Shown here: one piece after another, positions 4,083 to 40,585 of the stretch
Layout of the letters: each line of letters begins with the position of its first letter
Numbering within the stretch: position 1 is the stretch's first letter
Source: a virus
Lineage: Duplodnaviria; Heunggongvirae; Uroviricota; Caudoviricetes
Virus record (IMG/VR): IMGVR_UViG_2537561977_000033
DNA: 45,340 bases
Reading direction: 5' to 3' (one strand)
Translations under genes and position numbers: made by a program
The notes under the pieces: model-generated
The model's input: the letters and a program-made list of their open reading frames with translations, nothing else
Database searches by the model: none
What the model was told of the DNA's origin: nothing

Positions 4083-4658
4083 CTACGGCAGTGCTGGCCA
4101 TTCAATATCCTGTGCAGTTGACGTATCAACACGGTTCAGCAATACCCGATACTTTTTCCATGCTTCCAGCAACGAGATTTCTTCCTCCGTTGCAATTTCC
4201 AGATCTGCAGCATCCTGAAGCGGCGCAATATGCTCACTGGCTACCTGCATCAGGTTGTTTTTTGTTTCTTCCGCCTCCCGGATCCGGAACAGTTTTTCTG
4301 CTTCCGTATCCTTCACCCAGGCTGTGCCGTTCCACTTCTGAAACTCCCCTTCCGGCGATAACCAGGTAACATTTTCCGGTAACGGACCGAGTTCAGAAAT
4401 AAATAACGCGTCGCCGGAAGCCACGTCATAAACCGTTTTACCCCGATGATCTTCAACGAGATGCCACGATGACTCATCACTGTTGAAAACAGCCACGAAG
4501 CCAGCCGGAATATCTGGCGGTGCAATATCGGTACTGTTTGCTGGCAGACCTGTATGAGGCGGAATATATGCATCACCTTCACCAATAAATTCATTAGTTC
4601 CGGCCAGCAGATTATAAATTTTTATGGTCCGTGGTTGTTCACTCATTCTGAATGCCAT
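4083..4658 (-). CDS. tfa: tail fiber assembly protein, 191 aa
   Basis: Immediately downstream of the fiber gene with start/stop overlap at 4656-4660; sequence matches remembered TfaQ/lambda Tfa. Confidence 0.8.
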
Positions 4659-26340: not shown

Positions 26341-26656
26341 ACTACCACTGCTGGTTCAGAGTTAAAAAAACTATGATTTTTTCATGATGTTACCGTAGTA
26401 TGTGAGTATCCATCGAATAGACACCAAGCAAAAAAGCTCCCGAAGGAGCCTTCATTTTCACTTTTTTAAATCCAACGACAGACGGCTGGCATTTAAGTAT
26501 TGTGAAATATTATCAAATGTAATCATCATTGATTTACAAAAGATACATTTTGCCCCGAAAGGATTCATGTCAGAAACATCAAAAGATGATGTTCTATACT
26601 GGGAACCATGACAACACGGGCATCTAAAGTGAATATGGTTTGTAATATTGTCTACC

Positions 26657-26869
26657 TCAAAGCGCCACTACATGAACAGCGGCAGGACCTTTAGGTCCGT
26701 TCTCAATACCAAATTCAACTTCCTGATTCTCAGTTAATGTTTTGAAATCGTTGCTCTGAATTGCTGAGAAATGGACAAACACATCTTTGCTGCCATCTTT
26801 CGGCGTGATGAAACCAAAACCTTTTTCAGGGTTAAACCATTTCACTAAACCAGTCATTTTGTTAGACAT
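26657..26869 (-). CDS. cspI: cold-shock protein (CspA family), 70 aa
   Basis: [38 protein letters not shown]... with RNP1/RNP2 motifs; matches my memory of CspI. Confidence 0.8.
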
Positions 26870-27230
26870 AATTATTACCTTTTGAAGAAATTAGCCCTTG
26901 GGCAGAATGGTCCGAAAAAAATATCAGAGAGAAAAACCAACAAGGAAATCTCAAGAGGTACAAATAATAAAATTATAACAATGACTGCTTCAGATAAATT
27001 TGTAACAAACCAGAACACCATTAACGCATGATTAACCACCCATAGCAAGGATTACTTTTGTAAAGAAAAACACAGCAATGAAAGAATAGCTTTATTTATT
27101 AATAAAACGTGTCATTCTGATTAAGACCTTTTATCTTACCCTTAAGATTTCAGGAATTTTGGCTCATGGAAGAGTCCTTTTTATTCAAATTTTACATTCC
27201 GCGATGTAAATGTTCCGATTTAATATTACC

Positions 27231-29175: not shown

Positions 29176-29537
29176 TTGATTTTATTAGTAACAAGTATTT
29201 TTATATTTTAATAATATATTTAAAGCAGATAATAAAAAACCCGCCTGAGCGGGTTTGAGATTGTGGTGCTTTTTGTGGGAGTCATCCACTTACGCACTTT
29301 GTTTTGCCATGCCAGCAGTTAGCTTCTGCTGTAAAACTATTCATGCAGCAAACCTGCACTTCACCACAATGGTTAGCATACTTTTCCTGATTAAGATTTT
29401 GCCAAATATGCTAGCCATTGTTTCATGTATTGGACCTCCTTACTTTTTATTAAAGAGATCCAATATTCACTACTCTGTCCGTATCTCTACTCAGGCATCA
29501 GCCTTCTTCGTTATCGTATACAGACGAGCGATGAATT

Positions 29538-29753
29538 TTAATCAGTAATGATGACATTTGCTGCTGCAGGACCTTTAGCACCACTCTCTATAGAGAAGGT
29601 AACCTTTTGACCTTCAAATAAGGTTCGATAATTATCATTCTGAATCGCAGAAAAATGCACAAACACATCTTTACTACCATCAACAGGAGAAATAAAGCCG
29701 AAACCTTTATCAGCGTTAAACCATTTTACTAAACCAGTCATTTTATTTGACAT
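29538..29753 (-). CDS. cspB: cold-shock protein (CspA family), 71 aa
   Basis: [51 protein letters not shown]... matches my memory of CspB. Confidence 0.8.
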
Positions 29754-30052
29754 TCTACATTCCTTAACTTGAGCCTTTCGGCATAAATGGTTTGCATAAC
29801 AGAAACGACTTCGTACTTAATTGGAGAGACTCAAAGAAGGAATAAGTGAATAACACCTGAAATGAGAACTGCTTTAGTAAACTACTTCGTATATCGTCTG
29901 TTCTTCAAACCGACGCAATCATTAACGCATAGTTGAACATATGAAGCAATGTTTATTTTAGACATCCAGCCGTCTTCAACCCCATCAAAAACTATAGCTT
30001 TCTTCAGGAACGTGTGTATAGTGCGCCAAGTTATCAGTATTAAGGAATTTTT

Positions 30053-31452: not shown

Positions 31453-32541
31453 TTACGCCAGTACGCCAATTGCCAGCGCGCGATCGATAAAACGAAATAT
31501 CAGCTCCAGTTGGGAGCCATACTTATCTTCAAATGCCACTGTATCCGTATGCAGCTCGTTGTGATGCTTTCTGCACAAAGGCAACACAAAGAGATCATGT
31601 GCTTTTGTTCCCATTCCGCCCTGCCCGTGACCAATCAGATGATGCGGATCGTCGGCTGGCATACCGCAGCAAGCACACGGCTGTGTCTTAACCCAACGTG
31701 TGTATTTCTCCTTAACCCAGCGGCGACGTTTAGGCAGCTTCATGAAAGATTCCGGAGACTCTGGATCAACGGTGATGCTTACCACCGTCTTTTCCTGTGG
31801 TGATTTTTGTTGCTGGTGGGCGTAAGGCAACGGTGCAAGATTTTTTGTGCGTTGTTTCAATATTCTGGTGGCGGTCTGCTCTCCCGGTACGATGTCGCTT
31901 TCGCGGTACACCGAGCAGATTTTTTCCGCTGGTAATCCCAGCGAACGACGCGATACAGCCTCAGGTAGTGCATCCACCACCTGATTGCAGACCGCCCACC
32001 AGGATAATTCAGCCAAAGATAATTCCCGCTCCTGCGTACCGCTTATTGCGTGACGGATGACGTCAATCACCCATGCTGTCAGATTTTGTTGAGCAAGCAG
32101 CTCCAGTGATTCCGATGTCTGGTCACGCAGTTGGTTGTCGCAGTGCCAGCACAACACCATTGCGCCGGTACCATAACGGTGAATGACTGTTTCAGTGTGA
32201 TGGTAATCGCCATTAGGCCACTGGCAGGATGTAACATGACGTAATAGCCAGTCGGACAATGCGCCAACGCCGCCAGCAGCACGAATCACCCGTTCGTTAC
32301 TAAAAAACGGCAGCAATGTTTTGTCTTCCGCCAGCGGCTGGCGAACGGCAGGAACGACTCCGGATGGCAGATTACGCATGCTTTTTGGTTCCGGTTCCAC
32401 CAGCACTCGAGGATTATGAAATATCTGTATGGATTCACGGCCCGGCTTAAGGACCACCAGCCCAAGCTCAGGCACCAGAACAGGTCTAAGTAATACCCGC
32501 ACGTTACCTCCAGATCCGTTGCTGGAAAGTGCGGGACGCAC
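31453..32541 (-). CDS. ydfU: DUF968-family protein with C-terminal HNH-like Cys/His motif; start uncertain
   Basis: C-terminus ...PCACCGMPADDPHHLIGHGQGGMGTKAHDLFVLPLCRKHHNELH; upstream of Q as ydfU is in K-12 Qin. Confidence 0.55.
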   Translation of the reverse strand: MRPALSSNGSGGNVRVLLRPVLVPELGLVVLKPGRESIQIFHNPRVLVEPEPKSMRNLPSGVVPAVRQPLAEDKTLLPFFSNERVIRAAGGVGALSDWLLRHVTSCQWPNGDYHHTETVIHRYGTGAMVLCWHCDNQLRDQTSESLELLAQQNLTAWVIDVIRHAISGTQERELSLAELSWWAVCNQVVDALPEAVSRRSLGLPAEKICSVYRESDIVPGEQTATRILKQRTKNLAPLPYAHQQQKSPQEKTVVSITVDPESPESFMKLPKRRRWVKEKYTRWVKTQPCACCGMPADDPHHLIGHGQGGMGTKAHDLFVLPLCRKHHNELHTDTVAFEDKYGSQLELIFRFIDRALAIGVLA

Positions 32542-32782
32542 GTGGTGGGCGTTCGGAATAAGGCAGCCTGACAGAGATTATCCAGTGCCGATAGTCGAGA
32601 CTGAGAGCTTTCTTAACCTCGAACCCGCGCCTGCGGTAAGAATGAATCAGCCATTCGGCCTGTTCTGCAGTGCATGGAGGGTGCTGGAACCATTCAGACT
32701 TGAATGCGTGAGAATACCGCCCGTGCGTGCAGGCAAGAACGGGCGAATTATCAGAATTGTAATATTTTGCGTTGCGTGCCAT
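32504..32782 (-). CDS. hypothetical protein, 92 aa
   Basis: ORF only; overlaps the longest possible ydfU start. Confidence 0.3.
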   Translation of the reverse strand: MARNAKYYNSDNSPVLACTHGRYSHAFKSEWFQHPPCTAEQAEWLIHSYRRRGFEVKKALSLDYRHWIISVRLPYSERPPRASRTFQQRIWR

Positions 32783-32848
32783 CGGTTTTCTCCGGTGGCA
32801 CGGTGTTACTCAGCGGGAGTTCAGCCCCGCGCAAGATTGTAGATGAGT

Positions 32849-33100
32849 TTATTCTCCTGAAAAAGCAGAAAAGCCAGCTTTTATTCCGATCTCTTTCAAT
32901 GCCTGTAATGAAGTGACAAACTCACCTTCGCGCAAGATAAATCCGTCCGTGACCCGAGCATCCACAAAATTAATTAACGCAGCCCCATTCTTTCGCAAAC
33001 ACATAATGCGGTAATGACTAACAAGATTTCCATTTTCAACGCACACAGCATAGAGGCCATCTTCACAAAAAATTTTACGCAGTTCTTCGATGTTCATCAT
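32849..33100 (-). CDS. hypothetical protein, 83 aa (possibly Rem by position and length)
   Basis: MMNIEELRKIFCEDGLYAVCVENG...; symbol not assigned because I cannot recall the Rem sequence. Confidence 0.35.
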   Translation of the reverse strand: MMNIEELRKIFCEDGLYAVCVENGNLVSHYRIMCLRKNGAALINFVDARVTDGFILREGEFVTSLQALKEIGIKAGFSAFSGE

Positions 33101-33315
33101 CAGAATCCTTCCGGATAATTAGCTCTCCCCTTTAAGGGACCATCCCTCTTCTCCCTGCGCGCTACTTAAGTATTTTTGATTCTATTCCGGCACCGTCCAG
33201 AACTTCAAACGCGTTGAAAATAAAACAAAAACCCGCCGAAGCGGGTTAAGTGCGGGTGCGTTGAGGATGCCTGCCACATCAGAGGTGGCGAGGGATTTCT
33301 CCCTCGCCGGGTCTC

Positions 33316-33471
33316 TTACTCCTCAGGTTCGTAAGCTGTGAAGACAGCGACCTCCGTCTGGCCGGTTCGGATTCGTACCTCGCAAAGGTCTTTCCTCGTT
33401 ACCAGTGCCGTCACTATGACGGTTAAACAGATGACGATCAGGGCGATTAACATCGCCTTTTGCTGCTTCAT
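33316..33471 (-). CDS. hokD: Hok-family type I toxin, 51 aa
   Basis: Hand translation of the minus strand: MKQQKAMLIALIVICLTVIVTALVTRKDLCEVRIRTGQTEVAVFTAYEPEE; not in the ORF track (short). Confidence 0.8.
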   Translation of the reverse strand: MKQQKAMLIALIVICLTVIVTALVTRKDLCEVRIRTGQTEVAVFTAYEPEE

Positions 33472-33542
33472 AGCCTGCTTCTCCTGTCAACGCAAAGCAG
33501 AAGTGTCACCTTCGGTGCGAAACAGAGATGTCATGCTTTGGT

Positions 33543-33830
33543 TCAGAGAATGCGTTTGACCGCCTCGCTATATACTTCCGAGCGTTCTCTTTTCCCAACA
33601 GAAATCACGAAAACGACAACTTTCTCGTCTATAACCTGGTATACAAGGCGATAGCCTGAAGACCGGAGCTTAATCTTGTAACAATCAGGCATACCACGGA
33701 GCTTGTTTGCTTCAATCCGGGGTGACTCAAGTACTTCAACCAACTTCTTTTTCAACTGTTCACGTACCGTCGAGCCCAGCTTTCGCCATTCCTTTAGTGC
33801 CCGCTCGTCAAAATCCAGAAAATACGCCAT
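33543..33830 (-). CDS. relE: RelE mRNA interferase toxin, 95 aa
   Basis: MAYFLDFDERALKEWRKLGSTVREQLKKKLVEVLESPRIEANKLRGMPDCYKIKLRSSGYRLVYQVIDEKVVVFVISVGKRERSEVY matches RelE. Confidence 0.85.
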   Translation of the reverse strand: MAYFLDFDERALKEWRKLGSTVREQLKKKLVEVLESPRIEANKLRGMPDCYKIKLRSSGYRLVYQVIDEKVVVFVISVGKRERSEVYSEAVKRIL

Positions 33831-34069
33831 CAGAGTTCATCCAGCGTCACACGTACTGGCTTAGGATTACGAAGCCGTTCTTTCACTATCTCCACAAGTT
33901 CAGCATCTTCATCACTCAGGAGTGTCTGTTTGAACGGCAAGCGTTCATTGTCAGCGATATACTCGAGCATGAGACGAAGCGCTTCAGAAGGAGTTACACC
34001 CATTTTTTCAAGCGCGGCGTAAGAACGCGCTTTAAGTTCATCGTCAATACGCAGGTTAATGCTACCCAT
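33830..34069 (-). CDS. relB: RelB antitoxin, 79 aa
   Basis: MGSINLRIDDELKARSYAALEKMGVTPSEALRLMLEYIADNERLPFKQTLLSDEDAELVEIVKERLRNPKPVRVTLDEL matches RelB; stop/start overlap with relE. Confidence 0.85.
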   Translation of the reverse strand: MGSINLRIDDELKARSYAALEKMGVTPSEALRLMLEYIADNERLPFKQTLLSDEDAELVEIVKERLRNPKPVRVTLDEL

Positions 34070-34080
34070 GTCTTACACCT

Positions 34081-34106
34081 CTTGTAATTACAAATGTCAT
34101 TACAAG
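34081..34106 (-). promoter_or_regulatory. relBE operator (relO) palindromic repeats upstream of relB
   Basis: CTTGTAATTACAAATGTCATTACAAG, hexad repeats TTGTAAT/ATTACAA, 12 bp upstream of the relB start. Confidence 0.5.
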
Positions 34107-34399
34107 TATCGCACTACAACATGCTTAGGGCAAGTCACGAAGGAAGTCAGAAAGTAGTCGTAAGAACGGTGATCACTGTCCGCTTTGTGCCAGGAGCAGC
34201 CATTGCTAAGTCCATCCTGTATTGTGCAGATCAGCTCGTTTTTAAAGAGTCCGGCCATCATCTTACTGGTACAGACACCATATACTTTGTGACGGTCAGG
34301 CTACATATGCACAACTCAACTTATTCATCTATTTTTTGCTTTAGCATGTCAGTGTTGCTTTCTCGTCGGCGGGTGAGCGGTGACCTGACCTGTAGATAA
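34094..34399 (+). CDS. hypothetical ORF, 101 aa (YdfV position and size); may be spurious
   Basis: Length and position match my memory of K-12 ydfV; overlaps the relBE promoter region. Confidence 0.25.
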   Translation: MSLQVSHYNMLRASHEGSQKVVVRTVITVRFVPGAAIAKSILYCADQLVFKESGHHLTGTDTIYFVTVRLHMHNSTYSSIFCFSMSVLLSRRRVSGDLTCR

Positions 34400-34601
34400 A
34401 GGAACGTAGCACGTTTTATGCAACACCCGCATGCGGCAGAAAATTATTGCCGAACGTTTACCCCTGTCAACAAGCTTTACTTTCTGAGGCGCGCCAGCCC
34501 GCGAGGAAAACAATCTGAACATCAAACAATTAATGACACAAGAAATACGATTAAAGATTTTTTTGTGCATGCCGATAGTGCTTTTTTAAAAGGAGAAATC
34601 T

Positions 34602-34918
34602 ATGTCTGTCACAATTCAGGGAAATACCTCAACCGTTATTTCAAACAACTCCGCCCCGGAAGGAACATCAGAAATAGCCAAAATCACAAGACAAATTCAG
34701 GTGCTGACTGAAAAGCTTGGGAAAATCTCATCGGAAGAGGGGATGACGACACAGCAGAAAAAGAAATGGCTGCATTGGTACAGAAGCAAATTGAAAGCCT
34801 CAGGGCTCAACTGGAGCAGTTGTTAAGGCAGCAGGCAGAGAAAAAGAATAAAGACGCGACAGTTCAGCCTGATAAAAAGAAGAGAAAAAGACGATACAAA
34901 TACCGCTGGCACCATTGA
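34602..34918 (+). pseudogene. flxA: FlxA-like protein with an apparent -1 frameshift near an A-run
   Basis: Frame 1 MSVTIQGNTSTVISNNSAPEGTSEIAKITRQIQVLTEKLGKISSEEGMTTQQKK then frame 2 MAALVQKQIESLRAQLEQLLRQQAEKKNKDATVQPDKKKRKRRYKYRWHH; junction at CAGAAAAAGAAATGG. Confidence 0.45.
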
Positions 34919-34945
34919 TATTTACGTCTAAGTGACAGCCGTATT

Positions 34946-34968
34946 GTGGCCCTCATCGGGCCACTTTT
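34946..34968 (+). terminator. rho-independent terminator after flxA
   Basis: GTGGCCCTCATCGGGCCAC followed by TTTT. Confidence 0.5.
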
Positions 34969-35129
34969 CGCCATCAGCCTTTTCTTTAAAGACATATTAT
35001 CTTTGTATCATTTCTGATAGTTAACATTACAAGATATAAGTAATGGACGCACTCCCAATTAGTCTATTTAAATCGCCACGAGTTTAACTGACAACCCATG
35101 ATCAATTATGAATTGCAACTATTTCTGTA

Positions 35130-36790
35130 GTCACTTTTGTGGGGACAGTCCACAAAACTGCCAACTTCCGCTTCTTGCTCTTAGCGGACATTAGCATAGG
35201 CTATTTACCATAACGCCTCATTACGCGCACCGCCCAGACTGACTCAGCGCGTTTCTGGCATATCCCCGGTAAAACAAGTAACAACCCCCCCGAAAATGAA
35301 CACCAGAAACGCGACTTAAGAATCTACCCTATGAATGGATATGCACTCAACCGAATCGATCTTGGTTTCAATCTATTTTATCGGGATCAGGCTTCTTTTT
35401 AGGTAACTTCGGGGGCTTAACTTGCTGATGACTTTGCGTTCGGCGCGTAAGCCAGGGATGGTCAGCTTTAGATTTAACATAGTATTTTGAGCGTAAATCA
35501 ATACGGGCATTATCCACTCGTTCATGGACACTCTTTTCATCATCCAGTGGTATAGGCTCCGGGCCATCAACATACTTTTCCCAGCCCAGCGCTTTCCCGT
35601 CATACAGAACGTTAATTTCACCGTCAAAGTTCTCACATACAGTAACAACCGAATGCCTAAGTCGATATCCCCGGCCCTCACTGCGTACCTGAAACGCACT
35701 GCTTTTGTACTGGAAAGTGAGATTTTTAGACAGAACGCGCTTCGCCTGTAGGCTGAAGATATAACCCAGTTCCTCTTCAGAATGGTGCACATCAAGATGA
35801 GCATTATCAGTAGTACGAGGCGACGTAGCGAACCGGTTGTTATAGGCTTCAATAAAGGTCGGCAACCATGCATTTGCTGTTTCAATATCACTGATATTCT
35901 GAAGCCGCATTTCTTTGACCAGCCTGTCCTGTAGTGTCTGATTGGCGCGCTCTACCCGCCCTTTTGCCTGCGGGCTGTTGGCATGGATTGGCTCGATGCC
36001 CAGTGTCTTTATCGCACGAGTGAACTGGGTCAGCTCACCTTCCCGCTCTGGGTTATTTACCCTGAATATACTGTGTCTATCAGAGTAGAGAGCGAGCGGT
36101 ACGCCATGATCATTAAGGTAACCCCGGAGGGTTTCCATGTAAGCCCGGGTTGTTTCAGCAGGCACAAAACGCAACGCCATCAACGCACTGGTGGCATCAT
36201 CAATGAAAACGATCAGTGTACATCTGGGGCCTCGATTTTCAAACCAGTCATGCGGTGAGCCATCAATCTGGATCAGTTCACCGTAAGATGGTCGTCGCAT
36301 GCGGCGTTGATATATACGGGCAATTTTACGACGGCGTTCACGCCATAACCCCTCTTCTATCATCCACTTTCTGAGAGTTTCAACGGATAAAGATAAACCG
36401 TGTATCTCGCGCAATTTTTCGCACGCAAACGTAGGTCCAAAATCAGCGTAACGGCCTTTGAGGAGTGAAATTACTGTTGCTCTGAATTCAGTAGAAAAGG
36501 AATTATTAGGACGCTTTCCACGTCGGTGGGAAACCAGACCAGAAGGCCCTTCATTTCTATACCGTTGCACCAGACGTTTAACCTGCCGAATAGAAATGCC
36601 AATGCGTGCCGCAGCTTGTTCCTGAGTAATATGTCGATTAATTGACTCCTGAATAATCTGAAGTCGGTGGAGTTCCTTATGACTCATCGTAACAGTCTCT
36701 TTGATCATGAAAAATCCCCCAGAGAATTGTCTGGGGACATTTTAGAATGGTTCAAAGGGGACATTACAGCTTGGTGTTAACAATAGCCTG
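35130..36790 (-). mobile_element. insertion sequence carrying an integrase-fold DDE transposase (IS481/ISNCY-like); boundaries approximate
   Basis: Transposase gene 35368-36708; palindromic GGGGACA-containing sequences on both sides (35136-35160; 36711-36770); exact ends and target duplication not resolved. Confidence 0.4.
35368..36708 (-). CDS. DDE transposase with N-terminal HTH and rve integrase core, 446 aa
   Basis: MIKETVTMSHKELHRLQIIQESINRHITQEQAAARIGISIRQVKRL... (HTH), then candidate catalytic D (IQIDGSPHDWF), D (LYSDRHSIF) and E (AKGRVERANQTLQDRL). Confidence 0.8.
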   Translation of the reverse strand: MIKETVTMSHKELHRLQIIQESINRHITQEQAAARIGISIRQVKRLVQRYRNEGPSGLVSHRRGKRPNNSFSTEFRATVISLLKGRYADFGPTFACEKLREIHGLSLSVETLRKWMIEEGLWRERRRKIARIYQRRMRRPSYGELIQIDGSPHDWFENRGPRCTLIVFIDDATSALMALRFVPAETTRAYMETLRGYLNDHGVPLALYSDRHSIFRVNNPEREGELTQFTRAIKTLGIEPIHANSPQAKGRVERANQTLQDRLVKEMRLQNISDIETANAWLPTFIEAYNNRFATSPRTTDNAHLDVHHSEEELGYIFSLQAKRVLSKNLTFQYKSSAFQVRSEGRGYRLRHSVVTVCENFDGEINVLYDGKALGWEKYVDGPEPIPLDDEKSVHERVDNARIDLRSKYYVKSKADHPWLTRRTQSHQQVKPPKLPKKKPDPDKID

Positions 36791-37161
36791 CTTCTCCTTG
36801 CCTTCCGGCACTCGCGACAGATTATGTTTAGACGACTGTCGTAGCGACGTATTTCTCCGTCAGGTAATGACCAGATAAGGTCCGGATCAACCACAGCAGG
36901 TTTCTTCACCTTTGCCCTCGAGAGTTTTTTGCGGGCGTTTTGCCAGTCCTTACGCGCCTGTTCAGACGGGAATAACCCGTAACCAGAGCTGTATACATCG
37001 CCACTGGCAACCAGCTCTCTGGCCAGAACGCTCATCAGATATCTTGTTGCCCCAGTTTTAGCTTCCAGTTGTCGTAACGTCTCGCGCCCACTCTGGCGTA
37101 CGAGTTCCACCACCTGCCCTTTAATTTTTTCCCGCTCTTCTTGTGTAAAAACTTTTGCCAC
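36742..37161 (-). CDS. hypothetical protein of the early-right (replication) operon, 139 aa; 3' end probably altered by the IS
   Basis: Basic, Lys/Arg-rich; reading frame ends within ~40 bp of the transposase start. Confidence 0.3.
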   Translation of the reverse strand: MAKVFTQEEREKIKGQVVELVRQSGRETLRQLEAKTGATRYLMSVLARELVASGDVYSSGYGLFPSEQARKDWQNARKKLSRAKVKKPAVVDPDLIWSLPDGEIRRYDSRLNIICRECRKARRSRLLLTPSCNVPFEPF

Positions 37162-37201
37162 AAGTCCTCCTGAACATTACTTTATACCCTAAAATCAACA
37201 C

Positions 37202-38221
37202 TTATCCCCTGAAACCAGGCGGAATTTCTGTATCCGGTTCAGAAATATGATTCACACAACGCTGTACAGGTGAACGTCCCAGGCGGATGACCAGTTCGTC
37301 CCATTTTTCGCGGAGTTTTGACGGGCTCATGATGTTTTTTACCCAGAATTGATCTCGCTGTACCCGACCAAACATTTCGCAAATTTGTCTGTGGCTTCTG
37401 CCATCCAGCATCCGCATTGTGCGCACGTCATTGGCCCAGGCTGTCCAGTTAGGCTCTTTTGGTCGCATGATCTCTCCATCGTCGCTGGCAGCCTGTTCGT
37501 AAAGGTTCACGATCCGCCCCCAAATCCACTGCGCACACGCCAAATCCTCCCTGCTACCCCACTGGCGTTTTTTCGCACTAAACACAACCGCGTCGGGGTT
37601 CCGGGTTAAAAAATCCTGTTCAGCGGTCTGCGGGTCCGGTTGCGAAGCTTCCGGACGAAAAGTGTTTTTATTCTCTGTAGTAATCTCTGTTGTATTCTCT
37701 GTAAGATCATCAGGCCATTTTGACCCGATGACATTGGGTCGTTTTGAACCAATGGAGCGTTTCATTTTGACCTCTTCCATCGTGTCATTTTGACCTGATG
37801 GAGCGGCGCATTTTAAACCGATGGATTCGCTCAATTTGCCACCATCTAAAAGCTCGCTCCCGTAGTTGATCGTGTAGAAATTGGTCATATCGCGCTTTGA
37901 TTTATTGAGCTTTTCACAACGCAAAAGCCCCAGCGTTTTCAGACTTGCAAACGCGCGCTTTAACGTTGACTCTGACCAGAATGGGAACTGTTCCAGCCAT
38001 TGTTCCGTTGTGTTGTAAATCCAGCGAACACCATCACATTCCATGCCGGAATTGGTATCTCTCAACCAGTAATGCAACTGCTGCAACACAATGGCTTCAT
38101 TTAAGCCAATCTTCATCGCAAGCTGTGTGTTTATAACCAGTGGGCGTTCAGCAAAAAGAAGGCTCATAATTCCATCCAGCTTTTTGTTGGTATTGCTGTC
38201 GATACGCAAGTTTGAAAGCAA
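37202..38221 (-). CDS. putative replication initiation / replisome organizer protein, 339 aa
   Basis: Position downstream of cro-like dicC, corresponding to the lambda O/P position; no confident family match by eye. Confidence 0.35.
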   Translation of the reverse strand: MLSNLRIDSNTNKKLDGIMSLLFAERPLVINTQLAMKIGLNEAIVLQQLHYWLRDTNSGMECDGVRWIYNTTEQWLEQFPFWSESTLKRAFASLKTLGLLRCEKLNKSKRDMTNFYTINYGSELLDGGKLSESIGLKCAAPSGQNDTMEEVKMKRSIGSKRPNVIGSKWPDDLTENTTEITTENKNTFRPEASQPDPQTAEQDFLTRNPDAVVFSAKKRQWGSREDLACAQWIWGRIVNLYEQAASDDGEIMRPKEPNWTAWANDVRTMRMLDGRSHRQICEMFGRVQRDQFWVKNIMSPSKLREKWDELVIRLGRSPVQRCVNHISEPDTEIPPGFRG

Positions 38222-38669
38222 TTGCTTTTTCTATAAGTTCGTCAGTTTCACGATCCACTACGGCAGGATCAGCAAAAAGCAGTCCGGACTCCACCACATC
38301 GCCATATTCTTTGTTTAACCCGGCGATCATGTACGTGATGCTTTTTCCGTCACTAATTTCACGATACAACCTGAAATCATTAATCCGAATAGCCTCCATA
38401 ATTGCAGGCACTAGCGCCGTGAACTTTTCACGCTTATCCCTGGTGTCGATAGCCTTCCAGCGTTCGAATATCTTCACTCGATTAACGCCAAGTGCTCGCT
38501 GATCAACCGCGCCACCTTCATCTGTGACACGCTGAACATCGATGTTCGGGCGCTCTTTCAAAGCCCAGAATGCTTCTGTGATTAATATCGTCGCCTGCTC
38601 CTGTGTCATTCCTGGTCGACATATCCAGGCATCCAGAGCCTCACGAGCCTGTTCAGGAGTGATTTTCAT
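38148..38669 (-). CDS. hypothetical early protein, 173 aa (cII/YdaT position)
   Basis: First gene after dicC in the same operon; overlaps the dicC 3' end by 17 bp. Confidence 0.35.
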   Translation of the reverse strand: MKITPEQAREALDAWICRPGMTQEQATILITEAFWALKERPNIDVQRVTDEGGAVDQRALGVNRVKIFERWKAIDTRDKREKFTALVPAIMEAIRINDFRLYREISDGKSITYMIAGLNKEYGDVVESGLLFADPAVVDRETDELIEKAIAFKLAYRQQYQQKAGWNYEPSFC

Positions 38670-40532: not shown

Positions 40533-40585
40533 TTTCTGGTGACGTTTGGCGGTATCAGTTTTACTCCGTGACTGCTCTGCCGCCC
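40533..40585 (+). ncRNA. dicF: DicF small regulatory RNA (ftsZ-targeting), ~53 nt, followed by a T-run
   Basis: TTTCTGGTGACGTTTGGCGGTATCAGTTTTACTCCGTGACTGCTCTGCCGCCC matches the DicF sequence as I remember it; between the ydfB/C region and dicB. Confidence 0.8.

Follow-up and report, generated by a model that had tools for sequence, protein, structure and literature searches.

hokD in the relBEF operon of a Qin-type prophage: a toxin cistron very likely orphaned by a relBE-ended IS1202-family transposon

The DNA analyzed here, a 45,340-nucleotide virus record of the Caudoviricetes (IMGVR_UViG_2537561977_000033; this whole stretch is called the window), carries on its minus strand three consecutive genes encoding the antitoxin RelB, the toxin RelE, and the Hok/Gef membrane toxin HokD (RelF). 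We consider it very likely that these genes are the relBEF operon of a Qin prophage, in which hokD was orphaned when an IS1202-family transposon ending in relBE inserted into an intact sok/hokD locus. In the proposed course of events, a 3.3-kb transposon would have inserted just 5′ of the hok Shine-Dalgarno (SD) sequence with duplication of 15 bp, leaving hokD with its own SD and ATG, driven by the relB promoter (PrelB) and freed from control by Sok and mok. Most of the displaced hokD leader would later have been deleted in the window, and the half of the element bearing the left terminal inverted repeat (IRL) in Escherichia coli K-12.

The locus itself was already known, because its proteins and operon structure match relBEF of the K-12 Qin prophage; judged by sequence, the operon is the classical relBEF and the prophage a lambdoid one of Qin type, and the arrangement is textbook material. 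RelB, RelE, HokD, and the neighboring Rem are each identical to the proteins of strain MG1655. The DNA of the 1.3-kb stretch differs from K-12 at 7 positions (99.5% identity), and megablast found this stretch whole in 1159 of 5426 complete E. coli genomes, including MG1655, in whose Qin prophage the matching genes are labeled rem-hokD-relE-relB-ydfV. The relB stop and the relE start share TGATG, the antitoxin gene lying directly upstream of the toxin gene and overlapping it. RelE is identical over 95/95 residues to the protein crystallized on the ribosome (PDB 4V7K) and also to 4FXE, and residues R45, K52, K54, R61, R81, and Y87 are all kept. The toxicity of RelE and its neutralization by RelB were established for the identical K-12 proteins, according to literature cited in PMC3598666, and relBE shows every feature of a type II toxin-antitoxin (TA) module that can be read from sequence.

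An earlier note on this DNA had described RelB, RelE, and a 51-residue Hok toxin as encoded consecutively on the minus strand of a prophage, in a single operon with a relO-like palindrome upstream. This description holds. The open reading frame (ORF) list, the Pfam matches, and the identity to the K-12 proteins bear out the gene order, the Qin-type context and the MG1655 match place the genes in a prophage, and co-transcription is established for the identical K-12 locus (PMC3598666, PMC5120126). The palindrome TTGTAA/TTACAA was located at 34082-34093, upstream of the relB ATG and separated from it by 12 nt; a near-repeat of 12 nt lies beside it at 34095-34106. Neither a disrupted Hok frame nor a loss of RelE catalytic residues, which the note had taken as evidence to the contrary, was found. 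The expression "stacked toxin-antitoxin modules" proved apt for relBE as a type II module and inapt for the hok part, which comprises only a toxin cistron, an SD, a 3′ untranslated region (UTR), and a terminator.

The comparison with hok/sok loci that the note had recommended gave a negative outcome, both mok and sok being absent upstream of hokD. The Rfam sok model (RF01794) had no match at E<=1 in 32000-35500 and none in the entire window at gathering score, and the same model gives 84-132 bits on uninterrupted hok loci. Where hokD occurs without relBE in other lambdoid prophages (e.g., O157:H7 strain 1130 and strain 181.1), a complete hok leader lies in front of it and scores 104-117 bits with RF01794. 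When the window was aligned with these sok-bearing hokD loci, identity began 14 nt upstream of the hokD ATG (33485) and extended through hokD, its 3′ UTR, rem, and ydfU. The window copy therefore keeps its SD, coding frame, 3′ fold-back (fbi-like) sequence CCTCAACGCACCC, and terminator, and its 3′ UTR, including the fbi element and the terminator, is conserved with hokC and the sok-hokD loci. No promoter of its own, 5′ regulatory elements, mok initiation region, or sok was found for hokD in the window.

With hok/sok (parB) of plasmid R1, chromosomal hokC, and the sok-bearing hokD loci, the window thus shares the Hok/Gef peptide, the conserved Cys, the editable Tyr codon, the SD, the fbi-like element, and the terminator. 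In contrast to them, it lacks the hok promoter, the tac/ucb 5′ elements, the mok start, and sok, and its transcription is driven from a type II TA promoter. The Tyr codon is codon 47 (TAC at 33331-33333, context GCTTACGAA); hokD mRNA is transcribed and A-to-I edited at this Tyr codon, in a TadA-type context, to give Cys (PMC5630033). Since mok and sok are missing, hokD is an orphan type I toxin cistron and not a second TA module: the Hok/Gef peptide and 3′ elements expected of a type I system are present, and sok and mok are not. This state matches two older statements, namely that K-12 hokD is considered inactivated by genetic rearrangement (Pedersen & Gerdes 1999, as reported in PMC7232551; also PMC5630033) and that plasmid-derived relBE integrated into the hokD/mokD frame (a proposal of Ramisetty & Santhosh 2016, as reported in PMC6379469).

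The transposon unit occupies 33485-36782 (3,298 bp) in the order IRL, transposase, flxA, ydfV, relB, relE, and right terminal inverted repeat (IRR), with relBE forming the last 0.7 kb of the 3.3-kb element (Table 1). Its ends have the form 5′-TGT...ACA-3′, IRL starting with TGTTAACACC and IRR with TGTCAACGCA, and constitute imperfect inverted repeats of ~26 bp. On both strands of the 45-kb window, IRR is the best match to the 28-nt IRL end (21/28, in register, inverted, at 33485), and the IRL/IRR local alignment score of 19 was attained by only 4 of 2000 shuffled sequences. A perfect 15/16-nt repeat, ATAGCCTGCTTCTCCT, flanks the unit at 33470-33485 and 36783-36798 and is the sole direct repeat of at least 14 nt in 33400-36900. 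Against NCBIfam NF033594, the transposase scored 465 bits (E=1.2e-139; cut-off 250), and its RefSeq homologue is named "IS1202-like element ISEsa1 family transposase". Beyond the upstream repeat only a remnant of the hokD leader persists, the rest, sok included, being deleted from the window; this almost complete loss of the displaced leader accounts for the absence of sok.

Table 1 Features of the relBEF locus and of the transposon in the window. Coordinates are positions in the window; aa, amino acids.
Feature	Coordinates	Strand	Description
Intrinsic terminator	33230..33247	-	AACCCGCTTCGGCGGGTT followed by a T-run, inside the hokD 3′ UTR
hokD (relF)	33471..33316	-	51-aa Hok/Gef membrane toxin, third cistron; HOK_GEF PF01848, E=1e-23 (Pfam)
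Target-site duplication, copy 1	33470..33484	.	minus strand GGAGAAGCAGGCTAT, the hokD SD through "AT" of the start codon
IRR	33485..33510	+	TGTCAACGCAAAGCAGAAGTGTCACC; makes up most of the 71-nt relE-hokD spacer
relE	33830..33543	-	95 aa; ribosome-dependent mRNA endonuclease toxin; ParE_toxin PF05016, E=2e-13 (Pfam)
relB	34069..33830	-	79 aa; antitoxin and autorepressor; RelB PF04221, E=1e-32 (Pfam)
relO operator	34081..34106	-	palindrome TTGTAATTACAA and adjoining near-repeat TGTCATTACAAG
PrelB, putative	34105..34133	-	-35 TTGCCC (34133..34128), 17-nt spacer, -10 GATACT (34110..34105); overlaps relO
ydfV ORF	34094..34399	+	opposite strand to the rel promoter, which it overlaps; spans the module boundary
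Internal IRR-like inverted repeat	34163..34200	-	at the left edge of the conserved ~713-bp relBE end module (33485-34197)
flxA	34602..34934	+	cargo gene of the window copy; frameshifted relative to K-12
Transposase	35368..36708	-	IS1202-family (ISEsa1-like, ISNCY_2) DDE transposase, 446 aa, apparently intact
IRL	36757..36782	-	TGTTAACACCAAGCTGTAATGTCCCC; 26/26 identical in all related elements
Target-site duplication, copy 2	36783..36797	.	perfect direct repeat of copy 1
Displaced hokD leader remnant	36798..36811	-	last 12-13 nt of the original mok/sok leader, GTGCCGGAAGGCA[A]

The boundaries of the relBE module are fixed in every context, at 33485 and ~34197 (left homology edge 34192-34199). 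Two other identities for these ends were tried and rejected. The module was not supported as an independent miniature inverted-repeat transposable element of 713 bp, since no duplication flanks 33485-34197 in the window or in loci L005 and L006 and the larger unit is flanked instead. An integron cassette was discarded as well because GTTGACA misfits the attC core GTTRRRY and the left end also misfits.

Examination of other replicons revealed related units, with other cargo, that occupy this position in front of hok genes of at least five lineages and point the same way; the junction of IRR with hok recurs in five hok lineages. The relBE genes with the 57-nt spacer downstream show 99-100% identity on IncHI2, IncHI1B, and IncI plasmids, and 92% on an IncF plasmid, whereas the hok genes that follow these plasmid copies are only 55-67% identical to hokD; because near-identical relBE and spacer adjoin diverging hok regions, the relBE end module appears to have spread recently. 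For the hokD, pndA, IncHI2, and R1-like types, the alignment with leader-bearing (sok-positive) relatives starts only at one and the same column, and for the first three the hok part of the leader-bearing twin is 99-100% identical.

Comparison of filled with empty sites then showed how each insertion is bounded. In strains R2 and CPE35, the whole hokD leader is present (Rfam sok, 111 and 104 bits) and continues into the duplication GGAGAAGCAGGCTAT and IRL, and relBE, IRR, the second copy of the duplication, and hokD follow ~3.3 kb on; this 3.3-kb unit carries flxA and ydfV, and the empty site is represented by strains 181.1 and O157. The pndA gene of the IncI plasmid pSA20064858.1 (L016) is interrupted as ...GGCAA TGGAGGGGCTATGAT [TGTTAAC...GTTGACA] TGGAGGGGCTATGAT GCCACAG by a Qin-type unit of ~3.3 kb that is 99.5% identical to window 33481-36107, and the empty site reads ...GGCAATGGAGGGGCTATGATGCCACAG (L009). 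At the IncHI2 hok gene of pEC-IMP (L019, 309-6401), the unit measures 6.1 kb, encodes a transposase with 94% aa identity, a cytochrome b, a CDF transporter, and relBE, contains an ISEsa2 insertion, and is flanked by GGAGAAGAAGGCCAT; the empty site (L008) has the same upstream genes. Full units were also found on a Klebsiella pneumoniae IncHI1B plasmid (L020, 5259-19703; 14.4 kb with nickel/cobalt ncrABCY and chromate chrBA genes; duplication GGAGAAAAAGGCTAT) and on an Enterobacter IncF plasmid (L021, 5168-19689; 14.5 kb), in which 13/15 positions of the duplication match. In all five insertions, the common order is IRL, transposase, cargo, relB, relE, IRR, and hok. The flanking repeats do not occur as pre-existing duplications in the empty sites L003, L008, and L009. 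Because each insertion duplicates its own lineage-specific sequence, the five would be separate transposition events and not one ancestral fusion spread by recombination.

It could be argued that relBE came to lie beside hokD without transposition, by unspecific rearrangement or by homologous or illegitimate recombination between hok loci. The older literature, as reported in PMC7232551, indeed attributes the inactivation of hokD to a genetic rearrangement; no short stretch is better conserved across hok lineages than the SD block AGGAGAAG, a potential source of microhomology, and a microhomology deletion via GTGCCGGAAG did take place in the window. However, such recombination would not produce what was observed at each insertion, where 15 bp belonging to the lineage concerned stand duplicated to the left and right of a unit whose ends are always the same. 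The pndA junction offers just 1 nt of microhomology, no chimeric hok genes were seen, and the unit encodes a transposase and has the TGT/ACA ends typical of the family (PMC10132070). We therefore regard recombination as scarcely credible and retain transposition. The related idea that the spacer is a diverged hok leader, its last ~30 nt resembling the end of an R1-type leader, with hok exchanged by homologous recombination, was rejected for the lineage-specific duplications on both sides of the unit.

The plasmid copies also point to the relBE-tailed element as a vehicle for metal-resistance cargo, since they carry the ncrABCY, chrBA, and CDF transporter genes. Their cargo includes efflux and oxidoreductase genes besides the metal-resistance genes.

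For a species-wide sample, one genome per GTDB species was scanned for the exact 26-nt IRL, which yielded 16 loci, 15 of them with a readable flank. In 11/15, IRL was immediately preceded by a hok leader and SD, always in the same orientation, and in one the same site was occupied in the inverted orientation. The 11 hok-flanked loci span at least 7 hok contexts (Klebsiella, Enterobacter, Kluyvera, Pseudocitrobacter, Pantoea, Huaxiibacter, Superficieibacter, and Shigella), and in 6 of them an Rfam sok match at gathering score adjoins IRL. Every element that is complete within the 8-kb loci terminates in relBE and IRR. In four lineages the insertion point lies 25 nt downstream of the leader box TAGCC(T/C)... 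(TAGCCTCTT), its position relative to the ATG being variable. Hok loci are enriched on plasmids and prophages (10.1101/2025.08.07.668861), and for this reason the preference for hok initiation regions is probably a safe-harbor strategy that may land the element on mobile DNA, that is, on large plasmids and prophages.

The element resembles the IS1202 family (ISEsa1; the ISAjo2 group; Harmer & Hall 2023, PMC10132070) in its ISNCY_2/TnsB-like DDE transposase of ~446 aa, its TGT...ACA ends, its imperfect repeats of ~26 bp, its unusually long duplication, and its marked specificity for target site and orientation. It differs in that the right end lies beyond passenger genes, always after the relBE module, making it a transposon or "transporter IS" of 3.3-14.5 kb instead of a 1.6-kb insertion sequence. 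The targets differ as well: the ISAjo2 group uses pdif/dif (Xer) sites (PMC10132070), and the relBE-tailed element uses the hok translation-initiation region.

TA modules carried inside transposons are known, for example in the Tn3 family, in which a type II pair lies beside the transposition functions. In contrast to these, the TA pair here lies at the extreme end of an element of a different family and reads outward into a target that is itself a toxin gene. A literature search found no paper linking ISEsa1 with hok or relBE, the search being incomplete and ISfinder and TnCentral lying outside it, and a recent Hok survey leaves an association with relBE unmentioned. We hold with moderate confidence that a relBE-tailed, hok-targeting transposon family was previously undescribed. 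For the fuller definition, an undescribed family of IS1202-family (ISEsa1-like) elements whose true right end lies past a terminal, outward-reading relBE, with variable cargo, a 15-bp duplication, and a fixed orientation at the hok SD by which hok is moved from mok/Sok to RelBE control, our inclination is slightly in favor.

The layout of the operon suggests that hokD owes its transcription entirely to the relBE end module, which lacks a terminator and is directed outward through IRR. Neither a terminator nor a promoter was found in the 71-nt relE-hokD spacer, and the terminator behind hokD is the sole terminator-like site within 33100-34450; the single relB-relE-hokD transcript ends there. 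For K-12, a full-length relB-relE-relF mRNA was detected with all three probes and was lost on deletion of the promoter (PMC3598666); co-transcription of relF (hokD) is also stated in PMC5120126 and, as cited in PMC3598666, in Bech 1985 and Gotfredsen & Gerdes 1998. The relO sequence is invariant across 6/6 aligned contexts, and RelBE binding at the K-12 rel promoter/operator was shown by Sort-Seq and DNA-affinity purification (10.1101/239335). The position of PrelB was read from the sequence, where a putative promoter agrees with the consensus at 8/12 positions; a promoter scan of the locus with a threshold of 9 missed it. As established for the identical K-12 sequence, RelB and the RelB-RelE complex would bind relO and repress PrelB, and depletion of the labile RelB would let RelE cut mRNA in the ribosomal A site and raise transcription of the operon.

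The relBEF mRNA probably supports only poor translation of hokD. Folding of the 320-nt RNA from the relE stop to the terminator gave a predicted minimum-free-energy structure (z = -3.3) in which the end of IRR and the SD, GCGUUGACAGGA, are base-paired to the fbi sequence UCCUCAACGC on the 3′ side.

A residual hok-type control was considered, either by a mok-frame ORF starting at a TTG in IRR (33490..33323, 55 aa) whose translation is coupled to that of hokD, or by Sok acting in trans. The mok frame is open from IRR in the window and in the IncHI2 copies, and strains CPE35 and R2 retain the displaced sokD 3.3 kb upstream. Nevertheless, the TTG has no preceding SD, the target of Sok (the mok initiation region) is off the hokD transcript, the window contains no sok match at gathering score, and chromosomal Soks gave no cross-protection against R1 hok (PMC9841398). 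On balance, such control is quite improbable, and hokD is better described as released from mok and Sok. The ORF in question (33323-33490, minus strand) overlaps hokD, and its plasmid equivalent is annotated as "DUF5431 family protein".

The earlier note had further suggested that the type II and type I toxins together serve as a stabilization or abortive-infection cassette, a role that found no support in this analysis. If relBE and hokD were selected as such a two-toxin device, loss of RelB would de-repress both an mRNase and a membrane toxin. The genes are indeed transcribed together, and the relF part outnumbers all other relBEF mRNA fragments once toxins have induced cleavage (PMC3598666); over-expression of HokD is toxic (10.1101/2025.08.07.668861), hokD mRNA is made and edited (PMC5630033), and the same relBE-to-hok orientation in 11/12 hok insertions puts hok under PrelB in every copy. 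However, the recurrence of relBE next to hok is fully covered by the way in which the transposon chooses its target and keeps its orientation, so that selection on a joint function is not needed. The K-12 hokD gene is regarded as inactive in the older work mentioned above, in so far as this is reported in PMC7232551 and PMC5630033, and no phenotype was found in the accessible literature. Moreover, one copy of the element (L022) occupies a non-hok site, which shows that the element does not require hok. A jointly selected device is therefore unlikely in our judgment, and placement of relBE by the transposon is preferred. L022 was also tried as a "minimal" element and rejected, its transposase being truncated and a foreign ORF being present. 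The junction on the ES9 plasmid (L005) was likewise tried as an insertion of IS21 at the same point and discarded, since the IS21 end lies ~180 bp farther and the context is non-hok.

Several points weigh against the transposon explanation or parts of it. Of the 15 readable flanks, 3 have no recognizable hok site, and the specificity for hok targets is one that we infer from comparing filled with empty sites. No comparable IRR lies directly behind the transposase gene (best match 15/28), and for want of a good one there the element boundaries drawn here differ from those of the curated ISfinder ISEsa1, an element of 1.6 kb with "no TSD [target-site duplication] detected" (PMC10132070). The duplication classes of the IS1202 family are 3-5 bp and 16-28 bp (PMC10132070), and the 15 bp found here falls just outside. 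The transposon reading leaves the internal repeat at 34163-34200 unexplained; its local score against the reverse complement of the IRR region is 33 (shuffles: mean 13.3, sd 2.3, max 26; n=2000), and it may mark an additional site bound by the transposase or a leftover of an ancestral, smaller element. That the hokD SD is sequestered, finally, is a thermodynamic prediction and is weakly indicated, because RNA folding predicts different SD partners in other hok lineages.

The K-12 Qin prophage shares with the window the identical proteins, the matching relO, spacer, and terminator, and the neighbors rem, ydfU, ydfV, flxA, dicF, and dicB. The window differs by a few SNPs, homopolymer indels, and the frameshifted flxA, and above all by retaining 2.8 kb (35553-38389) that are gone from K-12. 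This segment contains most of the transposase, which is intact in the window, together with IRL and the second, upstream duplication copy. Only the final 256 bp of the transposase region is left in K-12, where ydfW matches the transposase in its C-terminal 49 aa (47/49 identical) and neither IRL nor the upstream duplication is present. The transposon probably went unrecognized in the reference strain because K-12 lost this transposase/IRL end. A window-type IRL junction occurs in 105 of the 5426 complete E. coli genomes. The 2.8-kb segment also carries a 339-aa replication-type ORF (37202-38221), besides a DUF977-like ORF (36742-37161, minus strand). The 3′ end of the latter is fused to the leader remnant via the 10-nt microhomology GTGCCGGAAG (junction 36799-36811), and its frame continues through the duplicated hokD SD into IRL.

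Within the element, the ydfV ORF has no Pfam match and is conserved in plasmid contexts over its first 104 nt only; it is probably spurious. Relative to K-12, flxA shows three single-base deletions in A-runs (34757, 34873, 34884), and the T-run after the hokD terminator (33221) is one base shorter. These flxA and T-run indels look like homopolymer errors of long-read assembly, real decay being possible.

A further plasmid locus deserves mention. On a K. pneumoniae IncF plasmid (L013, 1190-1400), only the final ~33 nt of IRR/spacer remain in front of hok, and a divergently oriented GNAT-toxin/DUF1778 TA pair replaces relBE; as this pair stands in the place of relBE, the locus would be a decayed copy of the relBE-hok arrangement. 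In uninterrupted sok-hokD prophages, the place ahead of the hok leader is taken by a RelA/SpoT-domain protein that may be a toxSAS (L003, 3528-4553, strain 181.1), or a Paa adhesin (L002, 3129-3887, O157:H7). The hokD 3′ UTR (33226-33307, minus strand) gave a weak isrK-like Rfam match (25.7 bits, gathering score 50), and on a Kluyvera contig (L037, 6628-6741) the isrO model, at 58.8 bits and above its gathering score, overlaps the transposon IRL. Because the matches fall there, the "island sRNA" families of Salmonella may in some cases contain hok 3′ UTR or IS-end sequence. The remainder of the window is also Qin-like, with DicF RNA and two cspA-type leaders; at gathering score, Rfam matches elsewhere in the window were IS009, two cspA thermoregulator leaders (cspB/cspI-type Qin genes), and DicF (4117-4315, 26630-27014, 29522-29914, 40534-40585).

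The reading proposed here supplies a concrete and testable mechanism for the "genetic rearrangement" that orphaned K-12 hokD. If it is true, the entry "no TSD detected" for ISEsa1 would be explained, and K-12 ydfW, flxA, ydfV, and relBE would be parts of one decayed transposon. The element would be a transposon with site and orientation specificity, for which one toxin gene, hok, serves as landing pad and which itself carries another TA pair. The relBE deletions and "Δ10 TA" strains of persistence work would alter hokD expression too, and relBE and hokD would be parts of a mobile element and not of the stress circuitry of the host.

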